A stretch of DNA of 64,000 nucleotides from Squalus acanthias (Eukaryota), in NCBI GenBank assembly GCA_030390025.1, contig CM059432.1, positions 5,704,001-5,768,000 on the forward strand, in the 5' to 3' direction. A program made the position numbers and the translations under genes. The notes under the pieces are model-generated. The model saw only the letters and a program-made list of their open reading frames with translations, searched no databases and had not been told where the DNA came from. Of the stretch, positions 178 through 61,604 are shown in pieces. Numbering within the stretch: the stretch's first letter is position 1; every line of letters begins with the position of its first letter.

Positions 178-423
178 CGATAGCGAAATACTGCGGATGC
201 TGGAAATCTGAAATAAAAACAGAAAACGCTGGACACGCGCAACAGGTCAGGCAGCATTAAGGTTTCGGGTCAATGACCTTGCGTCAGAACTGGTAAAAGT
301 TAGAGAGATCCCTATCGTTTTTCCAGTTCTGACGAAAGGTCATCAACCTGAAACGTTAACTCTGTTTCTCTCTCCACAGATGCTGCCTGACCTGCTGAGC
401 GTTTCCAGCGTTTTCTCTTTTTA
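178..423. mobile_element. Palindromic Penelope-like pLTR mini-element (family 1)
   Basis: Two inverted pLTR arms, flanked by the 14-bp direct repeat TTGTAAATATAACA (164-177 and 424-437). Confidence 0.85.
325..361 (+). ncRNA. Minimal hammerhead ribozyme motif (PLE family 1)
   Basis: AGTT-CTGACGA-A-AGGT catca ACCT-GAAAC-GTT-AACT: helix I AGUU/AACU, core CUGANGA...GAAA, palindromic helix III AACGUU. Confidence 0.78.
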
Positions 424-813: not shown

Positions 814-1014
814 CAGGCAGCATCTGTGGAGAGAGAAACAGAGTTAACGTTTCAGGTCATTGACCTTTCGTCAGAACTGGAAAAATGATAGGGATATCTC
901 TAACTTTTACCAGTTCTTACGAAAGGTCATCGACCTGAAACCTTAATCCTGCTGAGCGTTTCCAGCATTTTCTGTTTTTATTTCAGATTTCCAGCATACG
1001 CAGTATTTTGCTAT
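814..1014. mobile_element. Second palindromic PLE mini-element, inverted relative to 180-389
   Basis: Reverse complement of 180-389, including the near-identical spacer aaaatgatagggatatctctaactttta. Confidence 0.85.
842..878 (-). ncRNA. Minimal hammerhead ribozyme motif (PLE family 1)
   Basis: Minus strand AGTT-CTGACGA-A-AGGTC aat GACCT-GAAAC-GTT-AACT, core intact. Confidence 0.78.
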
Positions 1015-3570: not shown

Positions 3571-6500
3571 GTAGCATCCCCCAGTGACACTGTTGAGTAT
3601 AACTTGAGAGATTCTGAATTGTTTTCTGTTTTCTGTTTTCAGTCATTATATGGTTAGAATGTGGAACTTGCTTCCACAAGGAGTAGTTGAGGCGATGCAT
3701 TTAAGGGGAAGCTAGTTAAACACGAGGGAGAAAGGAATAGAAGGTTATGCTGATGGGGTTAGATGAAGAGGGGTGGGAGGAGGCTCTTGTTGGAGCATAA
3801 ACACCGGCACGGACCAGTTGGGCCGAATGGTCTGTTTCTATGCTGTGCATTTTATGTAATTATACATTGGATACATCTTAAAAAAAGGATCTTGCATACT
3901 GAAAACTCTAAATATGATGCAGTGGTGATGAGACTCATTTTCTGTATGCATTTTTTTCCATATATTAGATATAAATTGAAAAGCAAATCTGTTGTATGTA
4001 GTTTATTTATTCACCCTGTTTCAGTGGAATGAGGAATGGTTTTGAGAACATAAGAAATAGGAGCAGGCGTAGGCCGTTCAGCCCTTCGAGCCTGCTCTGT
4101 CATTCAATAAGATCATGGCTGATCTTCTACCTCAACTCGACCTTCCCGCCCGATCCCCATATCCCTTGATTCCCTTAATAACCAAAAATCTATCGACCTC
4201 CCTCTTGAATATACTCCACGACTGAGCATCCGCAGCTCTCTGGGGCAGAGAATTCCAAAGATTCACAACCCTTTGAGTGAAGAAATTTCTCCTCATCTCA
4301 GTCCTAAATGACTGACCCCTGGTTCTAGACTCCCCAGCCAGGGGAAACAGCCTCCCAGCATTAACCCTCTCAAGCCCTGTAAAAAAAAAATGTATACGTT
4401 TCAATGAGATCATCTCTCATTCTGAAATGTCTATCCATCAGTCAATACTGACCTGTGCTTTCAACGCATTTTGAAACTCAAATCTTCCTTTTCCCCACCT
4501 CCTCCCAACCAAATAAAATGTGATGGTCTGGTTTGAAAAGTCAACTGTTCATTAGTACAAAATCATGGCTGCATATAGCGGCACCACTATTCCCGGCCAG
4601 AATGGAGGTGATTGGGTAATTCCCCCCGTCAATCACGCCTGCTGTCAGTGACTGGGATTGATTTTACGCACGTCATTTGATAAGTCATGTTTGAACACCA
4701 TTGCCAAAGATCTGGGTTCAGATTGCCTCCTCCTTTGGGTAGCAAAAAGTGTGTGGATTTGAGACCTAATGAGAGGAGGGAAATAACCCAGGCTACCCTC
4801 GTAACCATGAAATGTGGAGAAACTGCTCAACACATCACGTTAATTTTACAACCCTTTTATCCATTGTCTTTGTATTAAAAGAAACTAGTGATCTTTGGGT
4901 GGGGGGGGGGGGGGGGTAAGCAAGAAAGAGAATTTGAGGCTTTAGATGGGGTGCAGAGGAGGGCCACATGATTAATTTCCAGTTTAAAAAGCCTTAGTTA
5001 CCCAGATAGGTTCAACGAGCTGGGTCTCTATACTTTACAAAAGTGTAGACTTGGGGGTGATTTGATTGAGACTTATAAAATAATGAAGGGACTAGATTGC
5101 ATTCATGTGGACCAATTATTTCAACTGAATAGGTTAGGGAAGTCGAGGGGTCACTCTTCTAAGTTATGCAAATGCAGAACTAGGTTGGATGTTAGGTGGG
5201 TCTTTTCCCAGAGAACAGTCGACCTGCAGTACAGGTGCCGGCTCAGGCGATGAATACAGCGAAGCAGCGTTCCTTCAGGCGAGAGCTGGACCTGTTTCTG
5301 GCCAGGGTGGAGATCACCTTGTACGCGAGGTAGGTATCCTGTAATGTAAATCGGGCCAGTTTGATCGCCTGAGGGTGCCGAAGAGGACTTTTGCGTGTAT
5401 GTGTTGTGATGCATAAGGCATCGCAACTGTGTGGGACAGGCTGAATGGACCAGTAGGTCTTTTCCTGTCTGTCATTTTCATATGTTTGTATGTAAATAGC
5501 ATGCTTTTGGTTTAGAGAACAGTTTAGAATTTTAGATTATTGCTGTGGTATTTGATTTCAATAACAGCAAATATTTAGGCACATTTTGCTGGTCTTGTGC
5601 TCAGTGAGAGCCTCTGTCTTTTCGTGCAGATGTTCCAGGTTTGAATCCTGGCAAGGCCAACTAGGTGCTGAACGGTATTTGCGACAAGAATTTACGTAGA
5701 TCTAAACTGACAGTAAGAATAACCGTATGTCCTGGGAAGATATTACAGTGCTTTACATGGCTCATTGCTTGCAGCATATGTTCTGTTTAACATTTAAGAA
5801 TATGAATCCTTTATCACATTAACCGTGAAACTTTGTGAGCTTTTTTTCCCCTCATCACCGTGGTGTTCCTTTTTTATTAACTCACCGAGGTTTCGCATTT
5901 TTTAGTTCGACCCATCAAATTCTCCCCCAACCCTCCTGTTTCCAAAGATTAAGCTGTTTTCTTAGGGATATTTAAAGTAAATCCCTAAGTGATTTATGGC
6001 TCTGCCCTTGCAACGCTGGATGGTTTCACCAAAACACACATGCAAATTACATAGGATATACGGCACAGAAACAGGCCATTCGGCCCAACCAGTCCATGCC
6101 GGCGTTTATGCTCCACACGAGCCTCCTCCCGTATTTCCTCATCTAACCCTATCAGCATAACCCTCTATTCCCTTTTCCCTCATATGTTTGTCCAGCCTCC
6201 CCTTAAATGCATCTATGCTATTCGCTTCAACCACTCCCTGTGGTAGCGAGTTCCACATTCTCACCACTCTTTGGGGACAGAATTTTCTTCTGAATTCCCT
6301 ATTGTATTTCTTGGTGACTATCTTATATTGATGGCCTCTAGTTATGCTCTTCCCCACAAGTGGAAACATTCTCTCTCTATCCACTTTATCAAAATTTTTC
6401 ATAATTTTAAAGACCTCTATTGGGTCACCCCTCAGACTTTTTTCAAGAGAAAAGAGATCAAGCCTGTTCATCCTTTCCTGATGCGAATACCCTTGCATTT

Positions 6501-7676: not shown

Positions 7677-8678
7677 GGGATCAGTGTTGGGGCCTCAGCT
7701 ATTTACAATCTATATTAATGGTCTAGATGAAGGGACCGAGTGTAATGTAGCCAAGTTTGCTGATGATACACAGCTAGGTGGGACAGTAAACTGTGAGGAG
7801 AACACAGTCTGCAAAGGGATATAGATAGACTAAGTGAGTGGGCAGTAAGGTGGCAGATGGAATATAATGTAGGGAAATGTGAGGTTATTCACTTTGGTAG
7901 GAAGAATAGAAAAACAGAATATTTTTTAAATGGTGAGAAACTTTCAAATGTTGATGTTCAGAGAGATTTGGGTGTCCTCGTGCAAGAAACACCGAAAGCT
8001 AGCATGCAGGTACAGCAAGCAGTAAGGAAGGCAAATGGCATGTTGGCCTTTATTGCAAGGGGGTTTAGTATAAGAGTAAGGAAGTCTTGTTACAATTGTA
8101 CAGGGCCTTGGTGAGACCACACCTGGAGTACTGTGCACAGTTTTGGTCTCCTTATCGAAGGAAGGATATACTTGCCTTGGAGGCAGTGCAACGAAGGTTC
8201 ACTAGATTGATTCCTGGGATGAGAGGGCTGTCCTATGATGAGAGATTGTGTAGAATGGGCCTATACTCTGGAGTTTAGAAGAATGAGAGGTGATCTCATT
8301 GAAACATACAACATTCTGAAGGGGATTGACAGGGTTAGATGCTGAGAGGTTGTTTCTCCTGGCTGGAGTGTCTAGAACTAGGGGGCAGTCTCAGGATAAG
8401 GGGTCAGCCATTTAAGACCAAAATGAGGAGGAATTTCTTCACTCAGAGGGTTGTGAATCTTTGGAATTCTCTGCCCCAGAGGGCTGTGAATGTTGAGTCT
8501 TTGAGTATATTCAAGGCTGAGATAGATAGATTTTTGGACTCTGTGGGAATCAAGGTACTGTATATGGAGATCGGACGGGAAAGTGTAGTTGAGGTCGATG
8601 ATCAGCCATGATTTTATTGAATGGCGGAACAGGCTCGAGGGGCCGAATGGCCTACTCCTGCTCCTAATTCTTATGTTA
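7677..8678 (+). mobile_element. CR1 LINE 3' fragment nested in the older CR1
   Basis: [31 protein letters not shown] motifs; tail gggccgaatggcctactcctgctcctaattcttatg. Confidence 0.9.
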
Positions 8679-9322
8679 TTATCCTGACTATCCCTTAATG
8701 GCCCTATTCCCATCCCAACCTTCCTTTTTTTTAATTGATGTGCCTATAAAATATTTGACTATTTTGTTTTATGTTCCTTGATAATTTAATTTCATAGTTC
8801 CTCTTTGCCTCTCTAATTATTTTTTTGACTTCTCTCCTAATCTTTTCGTATTCTCTTTTATCATGCACTCCCGTGCTGTCTGTGTACTTGATGTATGCCT
8901 CTTTCCTTACCCTCAATTGTCCCCTTATGGCTTTATTCATCCATGGAGTCTCATTAGTGTTTAGTTTGTTTCCTTTTAGTGGAATATATTTTTCCTGCAC
9001 TCTGTTGAACACCATTTTAAATGTTTCCCATTGCTGTTCTACATTGTTGTTTGCCAATATTGTTGCCCTTTGTTTTTCCAAGTTCTTTTCTCAGCCCCTC
9101 AAAATCAGCTTTTCTCCAATCTATTAACCTGGTTTTCGTCATACTTCTGTCCTTCTCAACTATCATCTTAAAGCGTATTATATTATGGTCACTACTGCCT
9201 ATATGTTCCCCCACCTTTACTTCTCTTATCTGCTCTGGTTCATTCCCCATTACTAGATCCAATAGCGAATCCTCCCTTGTTGGGCTTTTTATATATTGGG
9301 TTCGAAAGGAGTCCTGTCCACA

Positions 9323-11208
9323 TAGAAGAAGATAGGAGCAGGAGTAGGTCATTCAGCCCCTCGAGCCTGCTCCGCCATTCAATTAAATCATGGCTGATCA
9401 TCCAAATTCAGTACCCTGTCCCTGCCTTCTCCCCATATCCCTTGATCCCTTTAGCTTTAAGAAATATATCTAACTCCTTCTTGAATATATTTAATGAATT
9501 GGCCTCTACTGCCTTCTGTGGTAGAAAATTCCACAGGTTCACCACTCTCTGGGTGAAGAAATTCCTCCTCATCTCAGTCCTAAATGGCTTACCTGTTATC
9601 CTTAAACTGTGACCCCTGGTTCTGGACTCCCCGGCCATCGGGAACATCCTTCCTGCATCTAGTCTGTCTAGTCCTGTTAGAATTTTATAAGTTTCAATGA
9701 GATCCCCTCTCATTCTTCTAAACTCCAGCGAGTATAAGCCCAATCGACCCAATCTCTCCTCATACGTCATTCCTGCCATCCCAGGTATCAGCCTGGTGAA
9801 TCTTTGCTGCACTCCCTCCATGGCGAGAACATCCTTCCTCAGATAAGGCGACCAAAACTGCACACAATACTCAAGGTGCGGTCTCACCAAGGCCCTGTAC
9901 AACTGCAGCAAGACATCCTTGTTCCTGTACTCGAACCCTTTCGCTACGAAGGCCAACATACCATTTGCCGCCTTAACTGCCTGCTGCACCTGCATGCTTA
10001 CCTTCAGCGACTGGTGCACATGGACACCCAGGTCTCGTTGCACTTCCCCTTCTCCCAATCTATTGCTATTCAGATAATAATCTGCCTTCCTGTTTTTGAC
10101 ACCAAAGTGGATAACCTCGCATTTATCCACATTATATTGCATCTGCCATGCTTCTGCCCAATCACCCAACCTGTCCAAATCATACTGGAGTTTCTCGGCT
10201 TCCTCCTCACGGCACACACTCCCACCCAGCTTTGTGTCGTCTGCAAACTTGGAGATATTACATCCAATTCCCTCGTCTAGATCATTAATATATATTGTGA
10301 ATAGCTGGGGTCCTTGGACCGATCCCTGCGGTACCCCACTAGTCACTGCCTGCCACTTGGAAAAAGACCCGTTTATTCCAACTCTTTGCTTTCTGTCTGC
10401 CAACCAATTCTCTATCCAAGTCAATACCTTGCCCCCAATCCCATGTGCCTTAACTTTACACGCTAATCTCTTATGCGGGACCTTATCGAAAGCCTTCTGA
10501 AAGTCCAAATACACCACATCCACTGGTTCTCCCTTATCTATTTTACCAGTTACATCCTCAAAAAATTCCAGTAAATTAGTCAAGCACAATTTACCTTTTG
10601 TAAATCCATGTTGACTTTGTCCGATCCTGTCACTGTTTTCCAAGTGCTCTGCTATTACATCTTTTATAATGGACTCTAGCATTTTCCCCACTACCGATGT
10701 CAGACTTATAATACCCCGTTTTCTCTCTACCACCTTTTTTGAATAGTGGGGTAACATTAGCTACCCTCCAATCCATGGGTACTGTTCCAGAGTCTATAGA
10801 ATTTTGGAAGATGACCAGCAATGCATCTACTATTTCTAGGGCCACTTCCTTAAGTACCCTAGGATGTAGATTATCAGGCCCTGGGGATTTATCGGCCTTC
10901 AATCCCGTCAATTTCCCTAACACCATTTCCCTACAAATACTGATTTCATTCAATTCCTCCCTCTCATTAGACCCTATGTTCCCCGACATCTCTGGGAGGT
11001 TATTTGTGTCCTCCTTTGTGAAGACAGAACCAAAGTATGTATTTAATTGGTCTGCCATTTCTTTGTTCCCCATTATGAATTCCCCTGATTCTGACTGCAA
11101 GGGACCTACGCTTGACTTCACCAATCTTTTTCTCTTCACATATCTATAGAAGCTTTTACAGTCAGTTTTTATGTTCCCTGCAAGCTTACTCTCAATCTAT
11201 TTTCCCCC
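9323..11208 (-). mobile_element. Young 5'-truncated CR1 LINE with an open RT region (ORF 9408-10757)
   Basis: QHGF, YLDFQKAFDKVPH, GVPQGS, FADDTK, RPHLEYC motifs; upstream frame has KSPGPDNLHP. Candidate TSD TCCACA at 9317-9322 and 11209-11214. Confidence 0.92.
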
Positions 11209-14080: not shown

Positions 14081-14156
14081 TCCTTTAATTTAACCTTTTT
14101 TCCCCCCCCCACCCAGTCAGATTAAATATTTTGTAAATCCAACACCGTCCAGATAT

Positions 14157-15644
14157 AAAAACAGAAAATGCTGGAAATACTCAGCAGGTTAGGCAGCATC
14201 TGTGGAGAGAGAAACAGAGTTAATGTTTCAGGTTGATGACCCTTCATCAGAACTGGAAAAAGCTGAAGGTGGAACAGGTTTTTAAGCAAGTGGTAGGGGC
14301 AGGGAAAGGGGGGAGGGGAGGAAAGAACAAAAGGGAAGGTCTGTGATAGGATGGAAGGCAGGAGAGATTAAGAGACAAAAGGGATGATGGTGCAAGGCAA
14401 AAGGAGATGGTAATGGGACAAGTTAAGAAACAAAAGATGGCTCTAGATGAAGTGTAAATGGCACTGGCAGAATGATCGACAGCTGCCATGTGAGAGAGAG
14501 AGAAAAAAAATGGGAAAAAAAGATAGGGGCAGAGGTTATGGTCTGAAATTGTTGAACTTGATGTTGAGTCCAGAAGGCTGTAAAGTGCCTAATCGAAAGA
14601 TGAGGTACTGTTCCTCGAACTTACGTTGAGTTTCATTGGAACAGTGTAAGAGACCGAGGATGGAGAGGTCTGAGTGGGAGTGGAGCGGAGAATTAAAGTG
14701 ACAGGCGACCGGAAGCTCGGGGTCACCCTTACGGACTGAACGGAGGTGTTCCGCAAAGCGGTCACCCAATCTTCGTTTGTTCTCCCCAATGTAGAGGAGA
14801 CCGCATCGTGAGCAGCGAATACAGTATACTAAATTGCAAGAAGTACAAGTAAATTGCTGTTTCACCTGGAAGGAGTGTTTGGGGCCCTGGACAGTGGGAA
14901 GGGAGGACGGTAAAAGGGCAGGTGTTGCATCTCCTGCACTTACACGTGAAGGTGCCGGGGGAAGGGGTGTTGGTGATGGAGAAGTGGACCAGGGTGTCGC
15001 GGAGGGAGCGGTCCCTTCGGAATGCTGAAAGGGGAGGGGAAGATGTGTTTGGTGGTGGGATCACACTGGAGGTGGCGGAATTGGCTGAGGATGATCCGTT
15101 GAATGTGGAGGCTGGTGGGGTGAAAGGTGAGGACAAGGCGAACCCTATCGTGGTTCGGGAGGGAGGGGAAGGGGTGAGAGCAGAAGTGTGGGAAATAGAA
15201 CGGACACGGTCAAGGGCCATGTCAACCACAGTAGAGGGAAAACCTCGGTTGAGAAAAAAGGAAGACATGTTGGAAGCACTAGTATGGAAGGTGGCTTCGT
15301 CAGAGCAGATACGGCGGAGGCGGAGAAACTGGGAGAATGGAATAGTGTCCTTACAGGAAGTGTAGCCCAGGTAGCTGTGGGAGTCAGTGGGCTTGTAGTG
15401 AATGTTTGTCAAGAGCCTATCCCCAGAGATGGAGACAGAGAAGTCGAGGAAGGGAAGAGTCGGAGATGGACCATGTGAAGGTGAGGAAAGGGTGGAAATT
15501 GGGAGCAAAGTGAATGAAATTTTCTAGTTCAGGGCGAGAGCAGGAAACGGCACCGATACAGTCATCAATCTACCGGAAAAAGAGGTGAGGGAGGGGACCT
15601 GAGTAGGATTTCCAGCATCTGCAGTATTTTGCTTTTGTATTACT
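14157..15644 (-). mobile_element. Penelope-like retroelement, 5'-truncated (RT C-terminus + GIY-YIG endonuclease + pLTR)
   Basis: FLDFSVSI...YKPTDSHSYL...IPFSQFLRLRRICSD; VYCIRCSRCGLLYIGENKRRLGDRFAEH...PVACHFN...TLQPSGLN. Inverted pLTR tip at 15607-15640. TSD GTCCAGATAT at 14147-14156 and 15645-15654. Confidence 0.92.
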
Positions 15645-17403
15645 GTCCAGATATGTTTGTATTGCCAATTAATAATCACTGCACCAGTTTGTATTCTTTA
15701 CCTCCCCATGACTCTTTGAACTGCGCAGTTTTGTTCCTTTTAACTCTTTGTGAGCAAGACTGTCAGAAAAGTTTCTGAATTCGTAAACAGACCTATACAT
15801 GCACCTCCCATCTTAACCTTTACAGCTACACTTTATAAGGATTCATTTGCTTGTTTTTTTACAATGGTAACTAAGTGGAGGATGAGGTTTTCCGGTACAG
15901 TATCTGCTTTCATTGTGACATCACTTACTGCAGCACACATTCTCCCTATACAGCTACCATAAGTAAATTCCACGCAGTTGCTGGTATCTTTTATAGTGAA
16001 TTAATTAAAGTAATGGCGGTGACCATGGCGTGCACGACCCTAGAATAGTACAGCACAGAAGGAGGCCATTCGGCCCATTGAGTCTACGCAAGCTCTATCG
16101 AAGAGTAATCCAGTTAATCCCACTCCCCCCCGCTCTTTCCCCATATCCCTCTAATTTTTCTCCTTCAAGTATTTATCCAATTCTCTTTTGAAGGCTACTA
16201 TTGACTCTGTATCCACCGCCCTATCAGGCAATGCTTTCCAAATACTAACCTCTCTTTGCGTAAAAAAGTTTCTCCTCATCTCCCCCTCTGGTTCTTTTGC
16301 CAATCGCCTTAAATCTGTGACCTCTGGTTATCGACCCTTCAGCCACTGGAAACCGTTTCTCTTTATTTGCTCTATCTAAACCCTTCATGACTGTAGTCAT
16401 TTTTAATTATTACTTTTTTTATAATACAAGTTGGAACCATGTGCAATGTTGACTTTATTAATCCTTAATGGATGCATACTGTGCAATTCTTTTGACTAGA
16501 TCTGATTGAGTCCGAAGTTGTGGTTTGTAAAGATAGTGGGTTTTAAAAACGTATACTGCCCCAGGAAATCTGTGGTCATTTAGTTACTAGCTTTTTGGCT
16601 CCAATCACTGCTGTTTCGTATATTTTTGGTATCTTTGATTTGAAATTGTGTGGGTTTTTTCTGGGCCCTCCACAGGTTGTACGTGAAGTTTTAAACTATA
16701 TTAATAATCTCTTTGCGACATGTTTTCATAGCTGGATTATGTTGGCCTCTGTATACATATCTAGTCTATTCTCAATCAGCAACATTTTATAATATCACGC
16801 TCCCTTTATCAACAGCAATTTTCTTTTTATACCTCACTACAAATGACATTTTCTTAGAATGCTGCATTGAATTCATTATTCTCCGTCCTGTATAGTATCA
16901 TTCATGCAAATGTGATAGATTCAGCAACAAGCCAGCCCCAAAGGGACAGAACTGATGCAGGGTACACAACTGAAATGTCTTAACCTGTCTTTTTCTCTTC
17001 ACAGGTATTGACTGACCAGCTGTGCATTTCCAGCAATTTCTGTTTTTATTTCAGTATTGCGAAACCGTTTCCTATTCATGATCACTGAACTGTTTGCTGC
17101 TAATTAACTGTTTAAAATGCATGTTTTTAATGCCAGGCTTGCTAAGGGCACATACCCGAAATATGGGTATATGGAGAGTGCTTGATAGGTATTGGCCCGG
17201 GTTTTGCAGTCAGGTTCCTACTTGCGCCATAAACTTCTGTGGCTCTACAAACCAAATCTGCAATGAAGCTTTAAGTGTCTCATTGGTCATCTGCATTGAA
17301 GTAAACAAAATTAGATTTTTTTTTAATTAAAAGGAAAGAGAATGTGGCGTTGACATATATCTACTATCAAGTTAAAGATGCTGTTATTTGTATTATGTTC
17401 CAG

Positions 17404-19198: not shown

Positions 19199-20884
19199 TT
19201 TTGCCTTCCAGTATTTGCAGTTCTTTTCTAACTGAAGTCCTATTTGTTATAAATTTTGCAAGCTTTGCGTGGGGTGAATCGTGGGCTTCTGTACAGCTGC
19301 GTTCAGTGTGATTCTCTGCTCAGCTGGAGCACGATTTGGTTCTGCCGGTTTTCTGTATTTCAAAGTGAAATACTCTGCTGCCAAATGTTGCCTCACCCAC
19401 CTACCTGGCTTTCCTTCCTGAATGAAGACATCTAGATAAACCCTGCACCGTGCTTATGTCATCATTCAGGCCTGCAGCACACTGCAGCGTTTGCAGCTTC
19501 ATCATCTGCCTAGAATAGTAGGGCACAGAAGGAGGCCATTCGGCCCATCGAGTCTGCGCCGGCTCTTTCGAGGAGCAAACCAGTCAGTCCCACTCCCCAC
19601 GCTCTTTCCCCATATCCCGGCAATTTTTTCTCCAAGTATTTATCCAATTCCCTTTTGAAGGCTACTATTGAATCTGTACCCACCACCCTATCGGGCATGC
19701 GCGTTCCAAATCCTAAGCACTTGTTGCTTTAAAAGGTTTTTCCTCATCTCGCCTCTGGTTCTTTTGCCAATCACCTTAAATCTGAGCCCCTCCGGTTATC
19801 GACCCTTCAGCCATTAGAAACAGTCTGCTTTTCCTGAAGTTCCATCCGTGCTCTGCCTTTCTGGTGGCATCACGCGAAGCACACATTGGAATGCAGCAGG
19901 CATGACGAGGAAGTGCATGTTTACGTGGCTTCATTTTATCTTTTAATAGCCAAAGTCAAGAGCATGCCATTTTTATATAAAAAAAAGTATTTTTTCAAAT
20001 ACTGATCCCTAAATCCCTTTTAAGAGATATTATTGACTATGCTTCCACCGCAGTTTCCTACGTGACAAAGAATATTGTTCTAACAGCTCGCATGGTTGTT
20101 GGTAACAGAAAAATAGGAGCAGGAGTAGGCCATTCGGCCCTTCAAGCCTGCTCCGCCATTCAATATGATCATGGCTGATCCTCTATCTCAATACCATATT
20201 CCCGCTCTCTCCCCATACCCCTTGATGCCGTTTGTGTCTAGAAATCTATCTATCTCCTTCTTAATATATTCAGTGACTTGGCCTCCACCGCCTTCTGTGG
20301 TAGAGAATTCCACAGGTTCACCACCCTCTGAGTGAAGAAATTTCTCCTCATCTCAGTCCTAAATGTCCTACCCAGTATCCTGAGACTGTGACCCCCCTCG
20401 TTCTAGACCGCCCCCCCCCCCCCCCCCCCCGCCACCCAGCCAGAATTTCCTGCGCCTTTATGCACAGTTGGGCAGTGCTCTGTAAATGCGAATGACTTAT
20501 TTCTGCCGGTTGGTAGCGAGTTTGACCTTTCGAACCACCACGGAGACAAATGCACTGGTTCATTTGTTTTAGTGTTCACGTCCCAGATTTGCACTTCCTG
20601 TAAAGGTTTAACTTTAATGAGGCTAATGAATGAATTTAACAAATGTCTCGCCATCCCCAATACAAGACGGGTGTGTGCCATTTAAAAGTCCAACTGAACT
20701 AACAATTCATTACAAACTGGCAGATCCAAAACAAGACCATGGAGTCCTGGTTTATATCGTGGCTGACTGTAGTTGTATTAGAGGTTTTTTTTTAAATCTG
20801 GTAAATTTGGGAATGTTGAAAGATCGCGTTGAAGTTTTATATATTTCTTTTTTCTGTAGATTAAGTAATTGAATTTCTCTACAG

Positions 20885-21253
20885 GTACCCACCAGCCAAG
20901 AGGCCTAACTATATCCATCATGGCACCATGACTCCATTCCGTTGTCCTTGGCAACGACTTGTAGAGGAATGGGAAACCCAGAACCAAGATGGCGGTATCA
21001 AACCTGCCGTCAGTGGCAAAGAACAAGAGCTGAGGTCTGAAGTGCAGGACTCAAACAAGGAACATGTTGGGGTACATGAAAAGAAAGCTTCTGAGGACAT
21101 GTCAAATGAAGAAAAACCTCCAGAGCTGGAGGAGGAAATGGAAGAGGATGCTGAACATAGTACTGCTCTTGAGCCAAAGACAGGATGTGAACCTATCCAA
21201 ATTCCAAGTACTAAAGACATTCCAGCAGAAAGTGGTCCCGTTTCCATATTGAG
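20885..21253 (+). CDS. POP1: POP1 coding exon
   Basis: ctacag|GTAC...TTGAG|gtctgt, 369 bp. (R)[30 protein letters not shown], then an acidic linker to SGPVSIL(R). Matches human [25 protein letters not shown]. Confidence 0.95.
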
Positions 21254-22229
21254 GTCTGTATATGACTTGTTTTCTTTCTAAATTCATCAAAAGTCACTGG
21301 ATGGTTTTGCTAATTAAGATATTCTTCTGAAAAGAGTTCTGTGGCTTTATTGAGAAGTAGAATGGATATGATTCTATCAAGTAGCACAATTTAACTGCAG
21401 GTAAAATAGCACTCTGCAAGCACCACAGTCTCGCAGGCGAGTGCATTGAGCCAAACTGTAGCTCATATATGTTCCTATCCACCTCCAGGATTGTTGTTTC
21501 CATTACTTCAACTAAGCAGGAGACTGGAAGCTGAGAGCAGGTGCATTAGGATGCTATTCCTTAAATATCAATTTAAAAAAATCCTCATCAGGAACTTGGT
21601 GCCTACAATTTATCTTTAGTAACAAAAAAATGCTGTCTTCCCTTCTCTTCCACCTTTAGTTAAATCCAGAGATACGGATGCTAAATTGTCACCTCAGTCC
21701 TGTAGTTGGTGCGTTTGGAGCCTCAATGTACTTGGAAGAATACGCCGTGGGCTTGTGCTTCTAATGGTGCTCAGCCGTAAGACTGTGGGAAGCTCGGCGC
21801 AGATGTATTGCCACAGAGCTGGAGGAAATACCAGCTGGGGGAAAGATGTGTGGTCAAAAAGACAATCGAGGAAAGGGGAGAAAGTACAATCGCACGATAA
21901 TTGTGGATCAGGAAGGCTGTTCCACCTATCTCATCCGTCCATAAAGCGCCCCTATTGCAGCATGCAATTATTTTAAAAATTATTCTAGGGTTTTCACTTT
22001 ACCTGGGAGTCCATTTCACCTGTTGATCGCTCTTTCTTTGAAGGAGAACTCCCTGATATCGGTCCTAAATTTGCCTTGTACTATTTTGGGCCTGCATCTT
22101 CCTTGTCCTGCTCTCTCAATTTAGGTTAAAGTCATTGTTCTTTTCCCACACTTTTAATTTAAAATAGTATTCCTGATGACCCTTTTCAATACCATTGATG
22201 GGTGAGTGGAACTTGGTACAGGACTTGAA

Positions 22230-24320
22230 ACAGGCTAAGGTATGGGCAGCAGAGTTTTTGGTGAGCTGAAGTTTGGAGGATGTGAGGCTGGCTAGGAGAG
22301 CATTAGAATAGTCAGGACTGAAGCTAACAAAGACATGGATGAGTTTTTCAGCAGCAGGTGGGCTGAGGTGGGCGATGTTACGGAGGTGGAAGTAGGCAGT
22401 CTTTTTGATGGAGAGGATATGGGGTCAAAAGCTTAGCTTGGTGTCGAATAGGATTTGCGAGCAGTCTGGTTCAACCTGAGACAGTGGTGGAGAGGGGTAT
22501 GGAATCGTTGGAATGTGGTGGGGACTGAAAGATGATAGCTTTGGACATCCCAGTTGTTTAAATGGAGAAGAATGTGGCTCATACAAAGCTGGGTGTCAAA
22601 CAAGGCACATAGATAGTGTAGGGGTCGAGAGAGGTGGTGGAGGGGTAACGCTGGATCTTTGTTGGTGAGCATGTGGAAGCTGGCCCCAGGTCTTCGGGTG
22701 ATGTTGCTAAGGGTCAGAATGTTGATGAAACCGATGAGGGAGTCAAGGATAGATCCTTGGGGTCTCCAGAGGTAACAGTGTGGGGGTGGGACGAGAAGCC
22801 ATTGCTGAGAATCCTCTGGATAGGTTAGGTAAAAATGGAACCTTGTGAGGGTAGTCTCACTTAGCTGGACGTTGGAGCGTCGGCGTTGGAGGAGGATTGT
22901 GTGGTCGACTGTCTATCAAAGTCTGCAGAGAGGATTAAGAGGAGAAAAGCACCACAGTCATAGAGCATGTCATTTGTGACTTTGATTGATTCGGGCCATT
23001 TCAGTGCTGTGGCAGGGGTGGAAACGTGATTGGAGAGATTCAAACATGGAGTTGCAGGAAAGATGGGCACAGATTTGGGAAGCAACAAAATGATCCAGGA
23101 CAAAAGCAAAATACTGCAGAGCTGGAAATCTGAAATAAAAACAGAAAATGATGGAAACACTCAGCAGGTCAGGCAGCCTCTGTGGAGGGGGAAACCGAGT
23201 TAACATTTCAGGTCGAGAACCTTTCATCAGAACTGGAAGATGTTAGCGATGAATAGCACTTAAGCAAATACAGAACCAGAGAAAAGGGTGGGGGGGGGTG
23301 GATGCAAGGAACGAACAAAAGGGAAAGGCCTGTGATGGGGTGGAGTGATTAAATGACAAAAGGACTCGGTCACTTAATGGCGGTGGAGAAAATGACAAAG
23401 GACTTGAGAGGTGTGGCAGTTTGCAAGAACAGCGGGTTCGTGGATGTGTTTTTTGAAGTGGGGTTGATGATGGTTTTGAAAAGGATGGGGACAGTACCTG
23501 AGGAGAGGGAACCATTTCCAATGTCCGCTAGCATGGGAGCCTGGAAGGAAAGTTGGGTGGTCAGCAGTTTAGTGGGAATGGGTTCAAGAGAGCAGGAGGT
23601 GGGTCTCGTGGACAAAATTAGCTTGGGAGAGGGCATGAGAGAGGAGAAAGAAAGAAAGACTTGCATTTCTATAGCGCCTTTCACGACCACCGGACGTCTC
23701 AAAGCGCTTTACAGCCAATGAATTACTTTTGGAGTGTAGTCACTGTTGTAATGTGGGAAATGCGGCAGCCAATTTGCGCACAGCAAGCTCCCACAAACAG
23801 CAATGTGATAATGACCAGATAATCTGTTTTTGTTATGTTGGTTGATAAATATTGGCCAGGATACCGGGGATAACTCCCCTGCTCTTCTTCGAAATAGTGC
23901 CATGGGATCTTTTACGTCCACCTGAGAGAGCAGATGGGGCCTCGGTTTAACGTCTCATCCGAAAGACGGCACCTCTTGACAGTGCAGCATTCCCTCAGCA
24001 CTGCACTGGAGTGGGACTTGAACCCACAACCTTCTGACTCAGAGGCGAGTGTGCTACCAACTGAACCACAGCTGGAGGAGAGAAACTAGAGAAGGAAATG
24101 GGATCGGGGCTGGAGGAGATTTGTTTTGGGCAGGGGGATGGGGAAGAAACAGCAGAGGCAGCTGAACAGATGGTCTCAATCTTCGTGACAAAGAATTCCA
24201 TGAGCTCTTCGCACTTGTTGGAGGAGAGTGTGGAGGGGGCAGGGAAGAGGGGTTTGAGTAGATGGTTGGCAGTGGAGAAAAGTAGCTGGGGATTATCTTT
24301 GCTTTCCAACTTAATTGCAT
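22230..24320 (-). mobile_element. Degenerate L2 LINE ORF2 with a nested PLE pLTR (~23100-23370) and Deu-SINE (~23648-24072)
   Basis: L2-type peptides DNPQLLFSTANHLL, TSCSLEPIPTKLL, SLSSGTVP; nested repeats recognised by identity to other copies in the window. Confidence 0.7.
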
Positions 24321-24420
24321 TGTGTGCTCGTATAAATTCTATTTAAAATAGCAGTTTTGTCCTATTGATTCTAGGAATAGGCAAGATATTATAGACATTA
24401 ACTTTTCCGTTGTGTTACAG

Positions 24421-25072
24421 GAGTAGAAAGTTGCTGAAGCAGATATCTGCATGGTGTCGACCTACATCCAGCAGAGGTCAGAAGACCCAGCGGTGCAGAC
24501 GGTCTGCGCAGCTGCAGATGACACCAGATGATGTGAAGTCAATCATCTGCTCCTATCCCCGGTTCCTTGTCTGGGTCAGGCTGTCATTGCTGAAAAAAGG
24601 CAGTCCCGTTGCTAATGCGACCATTTGTATTCCTTCCAAAGAGGACCTCCAGCTTTCGGTGTCAGACCCTAATTGTTGTGGCCCTCAAGAACCAAAACAC
24701 CGAGACCCCTTCAAACGCAAGTGCAAAACCTTGAAGGGCAAGAAGAAACTGGCTTTGCCGGAGCATCTAGAAACTGGTTCTGGAGATTTGGGAATCAAGT
24801 CAGTTTCCAGTTGTAGAATGGATTTAATTCGAGGGTTATGGCCCGACCAGCTGCAAGGTGTGACGTCCCACTGCTCCAGACTTACAATTGGATACGTGAG
24901 CCAAGGGGATTTTTCATTGACTGTGGGCTGCGGAGAAGCACTGGGGTTTGTCAGTTTATTGGGACTTTTGCATATGGCGTCCAACCAGCCCGCAGACAAA
25001 CGTGGTCTTGTACTTGTCAGGAACCCCGCTTCTCTGCAGTACCGGTTAGCTAAAATAAATATTGAGGTATAA
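24421..25072 (+). CDS. POP1: POP1 terminal coding exon
   Basis: ttacag|G AGT AGA AAG. Translates (R)SRKLLKQISAWC...GYVSQGDFSLTVGCGEALGFVSL...RGLVLVRNPASLQYRLAKINIEV, then TAA. Matches the human POP1 C-terminus ...SLQYRFARIAIEV. Confidence 0.97.
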
Positions 25073-34188: not shown

Positions 34189-34650
34189 TCAGCCGTGGCT
34201 CAGTGGGTAGCACTCTCGCCTCTGAAGATTGTGGGTTCAAGTCCCACTCCAGAGACTCGAGCACAAAGATCTAGGCTGACACTCCAGTGCAGTGCTGAGG
34301 GAGTGCTGCACTGTCGGAGGTGCCGTCTTTCGGATGAGATGTTAAACCCAGGCCCCGTCTGCCCTCTCAGGTGGACGTCAAAGATCCCACAGTCACTATT
34401 TCGAAGAAGTGCAGGGGAGTTAGCCCCGGTGTTCTGGCCAATATTTATCCCTAACCAACATAACAAAAACTGATTATCTGGTCATTATCACATTGCTGTT
34501 TGTGGGAGCTTGCTGTGCGCAAATTGGCTGTAAAGCGTTTGCTACATTACAACAATGACCGCGCTTCAAAAAGTACTTCATTTGCTGTAAAGCGCTTTGG
34601 GACGTCCTGAGGTCGTGAAAGGCGCTATAGAAATGCAGGTGGTTCTTTCT
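34189..34650 (+). mobile_element. Full-length Deu-domain SINE
   Basis: A-box-like TGGCTCAGTGG, B-box GGTTCAAGTCC, Deu core and L2-like tail. Confidence 0.85.
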
Positions 34651-34656
34651 ATAGTC

Positions 34657-35130
34657 AAAAAAGAAAAACTTGCATTTCTATAGCGCCTTTCACGACCATC
34701 AGACGTCCCAAAGCTCTTTACAGTCAATGAAGTACTTTTTGAAGTGTAGTCACTGTTGTAATGTAGGAAACACAGCAGCCAATTTGTGCGCAGCAAGCTC
34801 CCACAAGCAGCCTTGTGATGATGACCAGATTATCTGTTTTAGTGATTTTGGTTGAGGGATAAATACTGGCCCAGGACACCGGGGATAACTCCCCTGCTCT
34901 TCTTCGAAATAGTGCCATGGGATCGTTTTACGTCCCCCTGAGAGAGCAGACAGGGGCCTCGGTTTAACGTCTCATCCGAAAGACGGCACCTCCGACAGTG
35001 CAGCACTCCCTCAGCACTGCACTGGGAGTGTCAGCCTAGATTTTTGTGCTCAAGTCCCTGGAGTGGGACTTGAACCCACAACCTTCTGATTCGGAGATGA
35101 GGGGGGCTACCAACTGAGCCACAGCTGACA
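34657..35130 (-). mobile_element. Full-length Deu-domain SINE, tail-to-tail with the previous copy
   Basis: Reverse complement of the same family. Further copies at 31530-31646 + 32239-32556(-), 44785-45200(+), 56455-56926(-), 62520-62955(-). Confidence 0.85.
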
Positions 35131-38277: not shown

Positions 38278-39569
38278 GGCTGGTCAAGTTAAGTTCCTGG
38301 TCAATGATGATCCCCAGGATGTTGATGGTGGGGGATTCAGTGATGATAATGCCATTGAATGTCAAGGGGCGGTGGTTAGACTCTCTCTTGTTGGAGATGG
38401 TCATTGCCTGGCAATTATGTGGCGCGAAGGTTACTTGCCGCTTATCAGCCCAAGCCTGAACGTCGTCCAGGTCTTGCTGCATGTGGCATGGCCTGCTTCA
38501 GTATCTGAGGAGTTGTGAATAGAACTGAACACTAATCCGCAGCCAACATCCCCACTTCTGACCTTATGATGGAGAAAAGGTCATGGATGAAGCAGCTGAA
38601 GATTATTGGCCCAGTAACCTTGAAGGAACAGCGATATATTTTCAAGTCAGGATGGTGTGTGAATTGGAGGGGAACCTGGAGGTGATGGTGTTCCCATACG
38701 CCTGTTGCCCTTGCCCTTCTAGGTGGTAGAGGTTGCAGGTTTGGGACGTGGTGTTGAAGAAACTTTGGCGAGTTGCTGCAGTGCATCTTGTAGATGGTAC
38801 ACACTGCAGCCACGGTGCGCCGGTGGTGGAGGTGAGTGGATGTTTCTGCAGCTATAGTTCCACTGGGCTTTACGGTGGTGTATCTGGCAGGATATATATG
38901 GGATCCTGGGAACTCTGGGGTGTTTCCATGCGCCTGCTGCCCTTGCCTTTCTAGGTGACGGAGGTCACGGGTTTGGGAGGTGCTGTCGAGGACATAACAC
39001 AAGCAGGCTGGGTTTTCCTTGACTTCCTCACTGAGAGATGGGGGCAGGAATCAACAGACACATGGAAGGCAGGTACTATCCTCCTCACTACTACTTCCCA
39101 TGTTTTGTATCATATGCAAATTTTGAAATTGCACTCCCTATACCCAAGTCCAGGTATATTACAAGTAAAGCAATGGTCCTAATACCGGCCCCTTGGGGAC
39201 CTGCACTGCATACATCTCTCCAGTCAGAATACTACTCCCTGCCTCCTATCCCTTAGCCAATTATGTACCCAAATTACCACCATCCCCTTAATCCCATGTG
39301 CTTCTATTTTCCGAATGAGTCTGCTATGTGGTACTTCATCAAACGACGTTTTAAAGTTCATATACATACATCTGCACAAGCCTCATCAACCCTGTCTGTT
39401 ACTTCATCAAAGAACTCAACCGGGTTCATTTAGGCATGATTTGCCTTTAGCAAATCCGTGCTGGCTGTTCCTTATTAACCCATGCTTCTCCAAGTGGGTA
39501 CAGAGGAGATTTACCAGGATGTTGCCTGGACTGGAGAACTTTAGCTAGGAGGAAAGATTGGATAGGTTG

Positions 39570-39781
39570 CAAAATACTGCGGATGCTGGAAATCCGAAAT
39601 AACAACAGAAAACGCTGGAAAAACTCAGCAGGCCAGGCAGCATCCGTGGAGAGAGAAACAGAGTTAACGTTTCAGGTCGAAGTTCTGACGAAAGGTCTTC
39701 GACCTGAAACGTTAACTCTGTTTCTCTCTCCACGGATGCTGCCTCGCCTGCTGAGTTTTTCCAGCGTTTTCTGTTGTTACT
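39570..39781. mobile_element. Palindromic PLE mini-element inserted in a CR1 fragment (39495-40205)
   Basis: Two inverted arms; 12-bp TSD TTGGATAGGTTG at 39558-39569 and 39782-39793. Confidence 0.9.
39681..39717 (+). ncRNA. Minimal hammerhead ribozyme motif (PLE family 1), perfect copy
   Basis: AGTT-CTGACGA-A-AGGTC ttc GACCT-GAAAC-GTT-AACT. Confidence 0.82.
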
Positions 39782-41479
39782 TTGGATAGGTTGGGTTTGT
39801 TTTCTTTGGAACAGAGGAGGCAGAGGGAGACCTTATTGAGGTGTATAAAATTATGAGGGGCCTAGATAGAGTGGATAGGAAGGACCTATTTCCCTTAGCA
39901 GAGAGGTCAATAACCAGGGGGGCATAGATTTTAAGTAATTGGTAGGAGGTTTAGAGGGGATTAGAGGGGAAACTTCTTCACCCAGAGGGTGGTGGAGGTC
40001 TGGAACTCACTGCCTGAAAGGGTGGTAGAGGCAGAAACCCTCATCGCATTTAAAAAGTACTTGGATACGCACTTGAAGTGCCGTAACCTACAGGGCTACG
40101 GACCAAGTGCTGGGAAGTGGGATTAGGCTGGATAGCTCTTTGTCGGCCGGTGTGGACACGATGGGCCGAATGGCCGCCTCCTGTGCAGTAAATTTCTATG
40201 ATTCTGTAAGTGAGAATTAATTTTGTCCTTGACAGTGGTCTCTAGTAGACTGACTGGCCTGCAATTGCCAGGTTTATCCGCCTCCTTTTTTCTTGAACAG
40301 GAGTGTAACATTTGCAGTCCTCCAAATATGCCTGTGTTCTTCAATAATTTTCTTCTTTCTTCAACAGATTTTTAAAAGTAAGTTGTTGCAATTTGAGGTC
40401 ACAAAAGCATTTTGTAAACACTTACATCATATTGATCATTCTTTTGCTGCACTCATAACTAAGCAGGTTTTGCATGTCTAGCCAAAGCTTCACCATATTT
40501 GCATCTACAGTCAAATTCAGCACCTATCACTTGCCTCTTGAAAAATACCTTATGTATTCACTTAGATAAAACCATTTTATCTTTTAAAATTAGTTACAGA
40601 ACTGCTCATGGCCTACTGGCCCAGCAAAGCGGTTTCCAAATCACCAACATTATTTTTTTACAGCTCCAGCTGTGTTAGTGATTGACGGGTACGACAATCG
40701 ACCTCTGTCTCCCAATCAAATCGTTAAAAGGAACTGTCAAACTGAACAGATCACACATCATGGTTCAGTTTTAAATCATTCTTCTCTCCAGCCCGTATCG
40801 GATGAAACTTGCGGTGCGGTCTGTTTTCGGGTGGGGTACGTGGCGTGCCGTGGTTGCAGTGTGTGCTATCTACAGGATCCATTGCAGCAAGTCGCAAAGG
40901 CTTCTTCGCCAGCGCGCCCCCCCCCACCCCCACCCCCAAACCTGCGGCTTCCGCCACTTAGAAGGACAAAGCTAGGACGTACATGGGCAAGCCATCACCT
41001 CCAAGTCGCACACCGTCCTGGCTTGGACATACGTTCCTTCATCGTCGCTGGGTCAAAATGCTGCAATTCCCTACTTATCAGCACTGTTGGGAGTACCTTC
41101 ACCACACGGACTGCAGCGGTTCAAGAAGGCAGCTCACCACCACCTTCTCAAGGCGACTAGGCATAGGCGATAAATACCGACCTTGCCAGCGAAGCCCACA
41201 GCCTGAAGAACGATTAAAAATAAAAGATGTTGGAGTGATGTTAGAATGCTCCCCTGTACTTAATTTTCTTGGGCCTCAGCCTGGTAAAAGGCATAAATGC
41301 TGCAAAGCCCGCTGAAAGTGAGACTTGGAGGTTGCGTCCGGTCTCATCGTATTAGAGGAAAAAGGGCTTCCTTTTCAGGGCCAGCAAGGAGGGGCAGTGC
41401 GTTTGGACAACAGCCAGCAGGCCCTGAAACCAAAAGCCACTACCAATGCTAGAAGAACTATGAGAAGTATTTTAATAGA

Positions 41480-45840: not shown

Positions 45841-46153
45841 CTGCCGAAAAAAGAAAAAATGTCGTTAAGTATATATTTTTTTTCAACGTTTAATTGCTTC
45901 TTTAAGATGGAATTAACATCAAACCTGTCATGACCACTGATAACGTTGCTGCTCTTATTATTTTCTCATATCAGGCTCGAGGGGCCAAGTGGCCTATTCC
46001 TGCTCCTATTTCTTATCTCATAGCTACTTATGAAGATGGTCAAGGTGGCTGTACCTCTGAATCCATTTCCTGCTATCTGGACTTTTTGCACTATTTCTGA
46101 GAGGCTGGAATTTAATTTGCTACAGTGGATTATAACCAGTTATGCATTGTGCT

Positions 46154-46360
46154 ACAACAACAGGAAATGCTGGAGACACTCAGCAGGTCGAGAAAAAACA
46201 GAGTCAACGTTTCAGGTCTGTGACCTTTCATCACAGGGTCACCGACCTGAAACGTTAACTCTGTTTCTCTCTCTCCAAGGACGCTGCCTGACCTGCTGAG
46301 CGTTTCCAGCATTTTCTGTTGTTGTATCAGATTTCCAGCCTCCGCAGTATTTTGCTATAT
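46154..46360. mobile_element. Palindromic PLE mini-element in the last NIPAL2 intron
   Basis: Inverted arms; TSD ATTGTGCT at 46146-46153 and 46361-46368. The CUGA core is lost at the central junction. Confidence 0.8.
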
Positions 46361-46388
46361 ATTGTGCTCTCTGCCTTCTGCACTGTAA

Positions 46389-58930: not shown

Positions 58931-59434
58931 TGTGACACTAGTGCCTCTGGCGACACAAAATTCCAGCTCAAGAGGCGGTTTTTTCCAATGTCACTGGAGA
59001 CAAGACACTGCCAGTGGGAAACATAAACAGGTGTTAATTTACCCTGGTCATGGGCAGGCTCAGCAGGACAACATTGTGCCCAACTTCCTGTGACATCTGG
59101 GAAGGTTCGATGTCCAGAAACAAAAGTGACAATTCCTGCTGGACCATGATCCAGGCCCCAATATTGCTGTAATCTCTGCCCCATATTGTAAACACACTGA
59201 AAATCAGAGCCCGAGCAGAGCCAAGTCAAGCAGGTTTGCAATATCAATATGATTAACCCATCAGAATAAATCAAAAAGCAAAATCTGCATTTGCTGTAAA
59301 TCTGAAGCAAAAGCAGAAAATGCGCGAGACCCTTTGCAGGTCAGGCAGCGTCTGTGGAGAGAACTCAAGTCAGTCGCTATTTAGGTGTGGAACCTTTCCT
59401 CAGAACCAGAAGATGTTACAGATGAACAGCCTTG

Positions 59435-60070: not shown

Positions 60071-61604
60071 TCGTATTGTATTGGTTTGGATTGGATTGGA
60101 ATTTATGTTGGCACTAGAATTTTATGGTCATTAACCGCCAAACAATTTCTTGATAAACCATCATTTGATAAATGATGCTAGAATCATTAATCATTTATCG
60201 TGCGCGAGTGACATACTGGCTGACAGAATCCCTACTGACACTTGATGCTGACACACAGTTCAGTCTAGTTCTGAATAACAGAACACGTAAAGGCCACAGC
60301 GTGTTTTACAAATAATTTACAGACACCCTGGAGTGATTTTAAGGCTGTAATTTAATCTCAGGGCTTGGCGTACAGCTAGAAATATGTTCTCATGATAAAT
60401 ACAATGTGTGAATCTTTTACCTAGCTAGCTAGGCCACAGCTAGAGCACTGCGCACAGTTGTGGTCACCACATTACAGGAAGGATGTGATTGCACTAGAGA
60501 GGGTACAGAGGAGATTTACCAGGATGTTGCCGGGACTGGAGAATTTTAACTCTGAGAAAAGATTGGATAGGCTGGGGTTGTTTTCTCTAGAACAGAGGAG
60601 GTGGAGGGGAGACTTTTAGGGGGTGATTTTGCCAATGGGGAGCATTTGGAGGCGGGACTTCCACTTGTCGGGTTTCAGTCCCGCCTCCATCAACTTCTGG
60701 CCAACCCACGCTATTTTCCCTTGATTGACCTTGTTAAGCCTGCCCAGCGGGCTTAGCAGGCCAATTAAGGGGAAGCCAGTTGCAGGGAACGTCAACGTAT
60801 GACGTTTCATCTGTCAAAGTTGTCATCGTTTGACAGCTCTGTGAAGCTGTCAAACAGTGACATTATCTAGAGTTTGATGAGGTCTTGAATTCAAGAGCTG
60901 GGAAGTGGGATTAGGCTGGATAGCTCTTCTTTCCAGCCGGCACAGACATGATGGGTCGAATGGCCTCCTTCTGTGCTGTGAATTTCTGTGATTCTATCAC
61001 TATTGAGCAGTTGTTTCCCAAATCAATAATCGCTATTGATTATTGTGTCACCTAACCAGCAGCGCCCCATCAGGAACTCTTCCCAATGACATTGTGAACG
61101 GAAATATTATTCACTCAAAACTTGGAATTAAATTATAGAAATTTCCAGAATGAAGTAACAATTCCCTTCTTTGGAAACATTAAGCAAAATACAATAACAG
61201 CTTACAGATCGAGGAATATTCACTACAGTGGCAATCACTGTGAAATCACAGGCTGTGTTTATGACTATTTCCTCTGGTGGGGGGAGTCCAGAACAAGGGG
61301 GCTTAACCTTAAAATTAGAGTTAGGCCATTCAGGGGTGATGTCAGGAAGCACTTCTTCACACAAAGGGTGGTGGAAATCTGGAACTCTCTCCCCCCAAAA
61401 AGCTACTGAGGCTGGGGGTCAATTGAAAATTTTAAAACTGAGATTGATAGATTTTTGTTAGGCAAGGGGTACTAAGGGTTAGGGAACCACATAGGGTAAG
61501 TGGAGTTAAGATACAGATCAGCCGTGATCTAACTGAATGGCGGAACAGGCTCGAGGGGCTGAATGGTCCACTCCTGGTCCTGTGAGACTGCAGTACCTCA
61601 GGAC

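Follow-up and report, generated by a model that had tools for sequence, protein, structure and literature searches.

Head-to-head Penelope-like element ends carrying a hammerhead motif in Squalus acanthias, most likely an ordinary insertion leftover

The window considered here is a stretch of 64,000 nucleotides of the genome of Squalus acanthias (GCA_030390025.1, contig CM059432.1, positions 5,704,001 to 5,768,000 of the forward strand), and all coordinates given below are counted from its first letter. The subject of this work is a unit of 212 bp, called A, inserted in a CR1-type LINE and formed by two 3' ends of a Penelope-like element (PLE) placed head to head. Exons of the POP1 gene (an RNase P/MRP subunit) are indicated by Pfam on the plus strand at 20865-21281, with a weak match below the cut-off, and at 24395-25072; these frames place A about 14.5 kb beyond the last POP1 coding exon. 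The parts of A and of its host site are the following.

39493-39893, plus strand: 3' coding region of the host CR1-type LINE, split by unit A and colinear with other CR1 copies after removal of the unit
39558-39569, plus strand: left TSD copy of unit A, TTGGATAGGTTG, 12 bp
39570-39781: unit A, 212 bp, head-to-head pair of PLE 3' ends
39570-39682, minus strand: tail-bearing PLE 3' arm, 5'-truncated inside the loop of stem II of the hammerhead and without the CUGANGA core
39570-39597, minus strand: tail of 28 nt, on the tail-bearing arm only, predicted to form a small hairpin (-5.7 kcal/mol) with adjacent bases
39681-39682, no strand: central junction, a 2-nt microhomology (AG) common to both arms
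39681-39781, plus strand: tail-less PLE 3' arm, beginning exactly at hammerhead stem I
39782-39793, plus strand: right TSD copy of unit A, TTGGATAGGTTG, whose first 8 nt agree with the element's own continuation at 5 of 8 positions

The two arms align over 83 bp (39600-39682 with 39697-39779) with a single mismatch, and the TSD is exact and scores above all 148 random position pairs submitted to the identical search, the best of which reached 9. Both results confirm the original prediction of a palindromic, ORF-less unit of 212 bp bounded by its own 12-bp TSD; no ORF is left in it because both arms are cut to about 100 bp. When the unit and one TSD copy are taken out, the flanks align across the empty site to other CR1 copies of the window (for example 60498-60616, 87% over 119 nt with one gap). 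The 12-bp repeat is therefore a true TSD, and the proposal that the unit splits a CR1 cleanly holds. The arm terminus had been read as ...TTTTGC, but its last C belongs to the TSD. Compared with each other the arms of A differ at 1 of 82 sites, whereas they differ at 8-13 of 82 from the other full-length young arms, and they have six non-majority letters in common. This near identity and the common letters point to one young type of template and to a unit that was assembled once.

The PLE arm sequence is present at eight loci in the 64 kb, five of them beyond the three units described originally and one of these bearing an ORF. Besides A, they are the following.

14157-15641, minus strand: long copy of 1.49 kb, with the 5'-truncated C-terminal half of the RT, a Cys linker and GIY-YIG (14536-15614), and a tail-less 3' end at 14157
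15606-15641, plus strand: inverted piece of the long copy, 36 nt of tail sequence only, at its 5' end and absent from its body
14144-14156 and 15642-15654: TSD of the long copy, 13 bp with one mismatch
178-423, no strand: inverted unit B, with a 14-bp TSD (164-177 and 424-437), an intact core at 329-357 (plus strand) and a 21-nt deletion in the tail arm
46154-46360, no strand: inverted unit C, with an 8-bp TSD (46146-46153 and 46361-46368), a junction of its own with about 3 extra nt and no intact core
815-1020, no strand: inverted unit D, opposite in orientation to B, with B's junction and arm-specific changes and an intact core at 846-874 (minus strand)
23107-23354, minus strand: copy E, non-inverted, 5'-truncated, with tail and an 8-bp TSD (23099-23106 and 23355-23362)
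16952-17054, plus strand: copy F, an old decayed single arm with 24-30 mismatches in 82 sites to the young arms
59277-59420, minus strand: copy G, an old decayed single arm with tail

The long copy reveals what the parent of A is. It is a frameshifted minus-strand fragment that matches residues 524-886 of an 889-residue protein with PLE-type RT and GIY-YIG (tblastn E 4e-70); the best named matches of its own protein are shark proteins with 46-47% identity, and its GIY-YIG is found by Pfam with an E of 0.0037, below the curated cut-off. Its end has 9 mismatches to A in 82 sites. Since the end sequence of A, an inverted tail and a 13-bp TSD also frame this 1.49-kb RT/GIY-YIG fragment, A is the short end of a truncation series; a full-length PLE copy was not found within the 64-kb window. 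The linker of the long copy contains a CX4CxxC motif (in the translations of 14762-15523 and 14536-15060), which the accessible text of PMC8557442 ascribes to Neptune and Nematis PLEs. The parent accordingly has a linker of Neptune/Nematis type, a likeness read from this motif, the RT core being truncated. In several arms (39686-39781 in A) the hammerhead core and the tail are spanned by one stop-free frame, like the start of the ORF of PAc, the Poseidon PLE of Anolis carolinensis; among 67 protein hits, none has an N-terminus resembling this frame.

The TSDs measure 12, 14, 8, 13 and 8 bp at A, B, C, the long copy and E, respectively. The score of the 8-bp TSD of C is matched by 5 of the 148 random pairs, and with the same control no TSD above chance was found at D, F or G. 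A candidate of 7 bp with one mismatch at D was discarded as being at chance level, as 93 of 148 random pairs score equally. An inverted 5'-truncated copy is adjacent at the 5' end at five of the eight loci, and the remaining three are single arms. The tail measures 28, 36 and 35 nt in A, B and C, and the inverted piece of the long copy 36 nt. One arm had been described as some 30-35 nt shorter than the other; the one-sided tail behind that description is real, but its length has to be counted from the end defined by the TSD, which gives the values just listed. Similarly, the recurrence of the architecture at 178-423 and 46154-46360 with different TSDs stands (14 and 8 bp), except that the copy at 46154 lacks an intact core.

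A short, ORF-less unit with inverted repeats and a TSD might also be taken for a MITE-like DNA transposon with long terminal inverted repeats. We give this reading practically no credit, as the TSD length varies (8, 12, 13 and 14 bp), the ends of the unit differ from each other, and it is made of 3'-end sequence of an RT-coding element. Copy E lies between the two POP1 exon matches, and introns of the same gene may contain B, D, the long copy and F, in which case read-through would form hairpin RNA.

The feature that gave the unit its interest is a minimal type I hammerhead motif, with the following parts.

39681-39717, plus strand: hammerhead motif of A, with a loopless palindromic helix III at 39708-39713 and a predicted cut after 39713
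39681-39684 and 39714-39717: stem I
39685-39691: core
39693-39697 and 39701-39705: stem II
39706-39709: GAAA

The core pattern occurs three times in the window, where 0.02 occurrences are expected, and thus the hammerhead motif is present in the terminal repeat of the PLE. The motif of A has the CUGANGA and GAAA-NUH core, a short helix I, a bulge before helix II and a palindromic helix III, as minimal hammerheads are described. Its helix I of 4 bp, its bulged base and its loopless helix III are shared with the published examples. The differences lie in helix II, which has 5 bp, in an antisense arm that is predicted to sequester the motif, and in the pair 10.1-11.1, which is A-U in A (39693/39705), B and D, whereas G-C at this position is highly conserved in minimal hammerheads (Cervera 2014). 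The Rfam hammerhead models give no match on unit A even at E<=10; the 12 matches obtained are all under the gathering score and mostly to generic hairpins (miRNA). The hammerhead had been called perfect; its parts and positions are as first described, but that adjective does not suit a motif with A-U at 10.1-11.1, a 4-bp stem I and a loopless helix III that Rfam does not match. In published work on minimal hammerheads, pairs of them on opposite strands, 100-700 bp apart, are ascribed to truncated PLEs; the accessible text of that work does not name sharks.

Each unit has a single core, with none on the minus strand of A. Broken cores are found in C, in E, in the long copy and in the two deleted arms. 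The CpG of helix III is altered in about 7-8% of the depth in the contigs of one public run (X1). This change and the broken cores of the other copies are as expected for neutral decay.

The plus-strand transcript of A is predicted to fold into one long hairpin (-168.8 kcal/mol, z -25.6), in which all nine pairs of the hammerhead stems have a probability of 0.0, and forcing stems I and II with an open core would cost 37.6 kcal/mol, both in the whole unit and in a transcript ending at 39725. In the isolated 44-nt motif, the predicted pair probabilities are above 0.98 for stem II and 0.31-0.73 for stem I. According to these models, the hammerhead of A would be buried in an 85-bp hairpin of its own transcript and silent there. 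As for the activity of such motifs, single minimal hammerheads have been reported not to cleave, and dimers to cleave at a low level (Cervera and De la Pena, PMC4209133), while the hammerhead of PAc, according to the accessible part of the report, is assisted by protein and can be dispensed with for insertion in vitro (Frangieh et al. 2024, PMC11167929). The hammerhead motif is real and inherited from the terminal repeat of the parent, and we take it to be a passenger in A.

These observations bear on the possibility that A is a retrozyme, that is, a self-cleaving and circularising RNA that spreads by means of its hammerhead. The intact core and palindromic helix III of A would suit it, as would the descent of animal retrozymes from PLE terminal repeats and their presence in the only cartilaginous fish that was sampled, both stated in the available portion of bioRxiv 10.64898/2026.07.22.740005. 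The non-LTR retrozymes described there are also short and non-coding and have a type I hammerhead; they are, however, head-to-tail arrays with a hammerhead in each unit, whereas A is a head-to-head monomer with one core. Retrozymes being defined as head-to-tail arrays, A is not one of them. No copy in the window shows a tandem array, all six tandem repeats of the window lying elsewhere. The single core, absent from the minus strand of A, the predicted penalty on the hammerhead fold, the poor cleavage reported for single and dimeric minimal hammerheads and the broken cores of the other copies also count against a retrozyme, and we regard this reading as very improbable. The family lists in the supplements of that preprint may nevertheless include the present PLE repeat.

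A better account of A is obtained from the geometry of the inverted copies. Five of them (A, B, C, D and the long copy) have four centres, with arms from 36 nt to 1.45 kb: the arms of A overlap by 2 nt, C has about 3 extra bases, and B and D, with their junctions at 308-309 and 893-894 respectively, have no spacer. The test suggested originally, namely whether central junctions are shared or unique, thus gives a mixed answer when applied to the copies of the window, as four junctions are found in five copies and those of B and D are identical. The tail-less arm extends further upstream than its partner in A, C and the long copy, and only the partner has the tail, which means that neither arm is a sub-copy of the other. 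Moreover, the target resembles the template where the tail-less arms end. Four tail-less ends have a TSD; when the initial 8 bases of the target at each are set against the continuation of the template, 20 of 32 positions agree, compared with 9.6 for shuffled TSDs (P 9e-5). Leaving out A, where the likeness was first noticed, 15 of 24 agree (P 4e-4), and 10 of 18 when, in addition, only positions 3-8 are counted (P 0.011); at the tail end of A the agreement is 1 of 8. An endonuclease preference for tail-like DNA could equally produce the same signal, which comes from a small sample of four loci.

Both lines of evidence, the lack of nesting and the target/template likeness at the tail-less ends, favour two separate primings over fold-back. 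A consists of two 5'-truncated PLE 3' ends placed head to head in a 12-bp TSD; we consider it likely, with good confidence, that it was made by one insertion with two separate primings and that it was dead on arrival. In this mechanism, the PLE protein would nick both target strands 8-14 nt apart. One of the 3' ends would then prime reverse transcription at the far end of the tail and the other about 30 nt further in, aided by partial likeness between target and template. Both cDNAs would stop early, often near the hammerhead, and would be joined by a short microhomology. Arms that share sequence, as those of A, B and C do, would require either two copies of the RNA or two repeats within a tandem transcript; for non-overlapping arms, as in the long copy, one RNA would be enough, as in L1 twin priming. 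In the tail hairpin of A (39570-39600), C-G-G-A-T pairs with A-T-C-C-G, where most copies have C-A-G-A-T and A-T-C-T-G; a compensatory change in this stem, next to the two priming sites, is possible.

The main competitor for the origin of the inverted arm is self-priming, in which a single cDNA, or an antisense template, folds back and the tail is added when the intermediate is resolved, as proposed for rotifer PLEs in the accessible text of PMC3846280. The near identity of the arms of A (1 mismatch in 83) and the centres of B and D without spacer would be natural outcomes of this process. It is, however, difficult to reconcile with A, C and the long copy, in which neither arm contains the other, and with the inverted arm of the long copy, which is tail sequence not present in the body, so that a simple fold-back would need an extra template switch. 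We think that self-priming is unlikely, while still deserving consideration.

Contigs from four public runs (150,859 in total) extend the junction comparison beyond the window. They were placed on the unit with the longest arms, B, where any shorter unit appears as a joint; the reference is thus B and not A, a junction of B type appears as continuous cover and not as a joint, hairpin contigs are short, and the contigs carry no strand or RNA ends. The depth in X1 is 12.2 over the flank and up to 1.3e7 over the arms, which means that the PLE end repeat is extremely abundant, although depth is not copy number. There are 392 joints, of which the 15 with the best support reach no more than 10 contigs in any one run and a depth of no more than 470, compared with the arm depth of up to 1.3e7. 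No dominant joint is found among these best 15 of 392, nor is the junction of A (about 341-343 to 325 in B coordinates). A point against the reading that we prefer is a recurrent joint between opposite strands, 346/378 in B coordinates, with 9 contigs in X1 and 6 in X6; its neighbour 344/378 has 5, 1 and 2 in X1, X5 and X6. A 4-nt microhomology adjoins the 346/378 joint, but 42 position pairs have at least 4 nt, so that the joint may be either a hot spot or a small family. The displayed joints from 215-233 to 399-416 were not counted as junctions, as we infer that they are probably ordinary ends split over the two arms of the palindromic reference. In X1, 880 and 525 contigs have loose ends past the tail, at 182 and 186 respectively (agreement 0.45-0.46); these continue into mixed A/T-rich sequence, which is what the ends of many independent insertions should look like. 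Run X19, whose RNA status is a guess, covers both arms of B and not its centre, and its contigs, having no strand or ends, are neutral as evidence. A 22-nt pattern of the arm had 0 matches in metagenome contigs.

The two origins that had been put forward for A fare differently with these data. A self-propagating, retrozyme-like family is unsupported for A, which has no head-to-tail array, whose hammerhead is predicted to be buried in the 85-bp hairpin, and for which no joint dominates among the best 15 of 392. An extreme truncation and inversion product of PLE integration, in turn, is borne out by the ORF-bearing copy with the same ends, by the four junctions in five inverted copies and by the published architecture of PLE insertions. 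The likeliest view of unit A is therefore that of a common remnant left by an element of a known type, and not that of a new RNA that spreads by itself.

The pair formed by B and D requires something more. Over most of their length their flanks differ, but the two units agree in their junction, in one deletion breakpoint and in about five substitutions that are arm-specific. Independent assembly cannot account for this agreement, and it follows that whole copying of a palindrome has occurred at least once. The manner of copying can be read in two ways. D retains the full tail end and has its other arm cut short, a shape that fits a tail-primed, 5'-truncated retrocopy. D also lies about 390 bp from B and inverted to it, has no TSD above chance, and its local alignment runs 9 nt into the TSD of B after a 5-nt gap; this closeness and reach fit a local copy or conversion at the DNA level.

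A related proposal is that palindromes are made by dual priming and that the PLE protein then makes whole copies of some of them out of read-through transcripts, giving small non-autonomous lineages with fixed junctions, for which a cutting hammerhead is unnecessary. The common junction and arm-specific changes of B and D in mostly different flanks, and the retrocopy-like shape of D, speak for it; in a rotifer, moreover, pLTRs alone sufficed for mobilisation in trans, according to the accessible text of PMC3846280. The depth over the left-centre bins of B, about 200 times that of the flank in X1 (2390 compared with 12.2), is a further point in its favour, but it may come from ordinary ends that fit that arm, and the centre of B is crossed by none of the 32 listed pieces of 154,240 in the public contigs. 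The signs of local copying at D and the absence of the junction of A from the best 15 of 392 joints also weigh against it, and we judge this proposal rather improbable. The same doubt applies to its broader form, in which PLE stumps from dual priming, re-mobilised whole, would make hairpin-shaped non-autonomous lineages with fixed junctions (B/D and 346/378 being the candidates), and read-through of these very abundant palindromes would yield long dsRNA against the parent; this is an improbable extension. For A itself, insertion by two primings remains the reading that we prefer.

Other palindromic or inverted arrangements are found in the window. At 34189-35130, two tRNA-headed SINE-like repeats of about 470 bp each stand tail to tail some 11 bp apart, forming a palindrome of 940 bp with 86% identity, at which no TSD above chance was found; this repeat is abundant, with at least six further near-full copies in the window. 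At 8200-9800, two inverted CR1 3' ends about 650 bp apart and about 76% alike look like independent insertions. The sole Rfam match of the window at the gathering score is tRNA-like (5591-5659, 42.3 bits) and is probably a SINE head.

Unit A is not new as a system: it is the smallest form of an insertion structure already described for PLEs. An inverted 5'-truncated copy and a one-sided tail of 30-40 bp are given as typical of PLE insertions in the accessible text of PMC8557442 and PMC3846280. The EN+ PLE insertions of these papers (Arkhipova et al. 2013, PMC3846280; Craig et al. 2021, PMC8557442) have, in the portions available, the same inverted terminal piece, one-sided tail, strong 5' truncation and RT with C-terminal GIY-YIG. 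Their TSDs, given there as 8-10 bp compared with 8-14 bp here, are variable in both cases. Those portions favour self-priming or leave it open, whereas the arm geometry found here argues for two primings; the origin of the inverted arms and tails of PLEs is still called undefined in what is accessible of PMC8557442.

The closest biochemical parallel is PAc, for which the accessible part of PMC11167929 describes two RT start sites that bracket the tail, cutting and extension of both strands, and a hammerhead upstream of the tail. The primings that we propose at the tail end and about 30 nt internally match these two start sites and the two-strand activity. The parent of A differs in its CX4CxxC linker, absent from Poseidon, and the priming of PAc is reported there as non-homologous to the cut DNA, whereas the tail-less ends described here show partial target/template likeness. 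L1 twin priming and the proposed dual priming (Meyer et al. 2010, PMC2837659, in its available text) also place two inverted cDNAs in one TSD with microhomology at the target junctions; in the present case, by comparison, the site of the second priming is nearly constant, about 30 nt away from the first, and the sequences of the two arms can overlap. No account of these shark units or of PLE dual priming was found in the literature searched, which excludes most subscription papers, Repbase and Dfam.

The abundance of TSD-bounded PLE stumps provides material for genome-wide tests of dual priming against fold-back, and of the pairing of target and template at the second site. If it were true that junctions of the B/D type represent families, they would constitute a class of hairpin-shaped PLE passengers, distinct from the tandem retrozymes.
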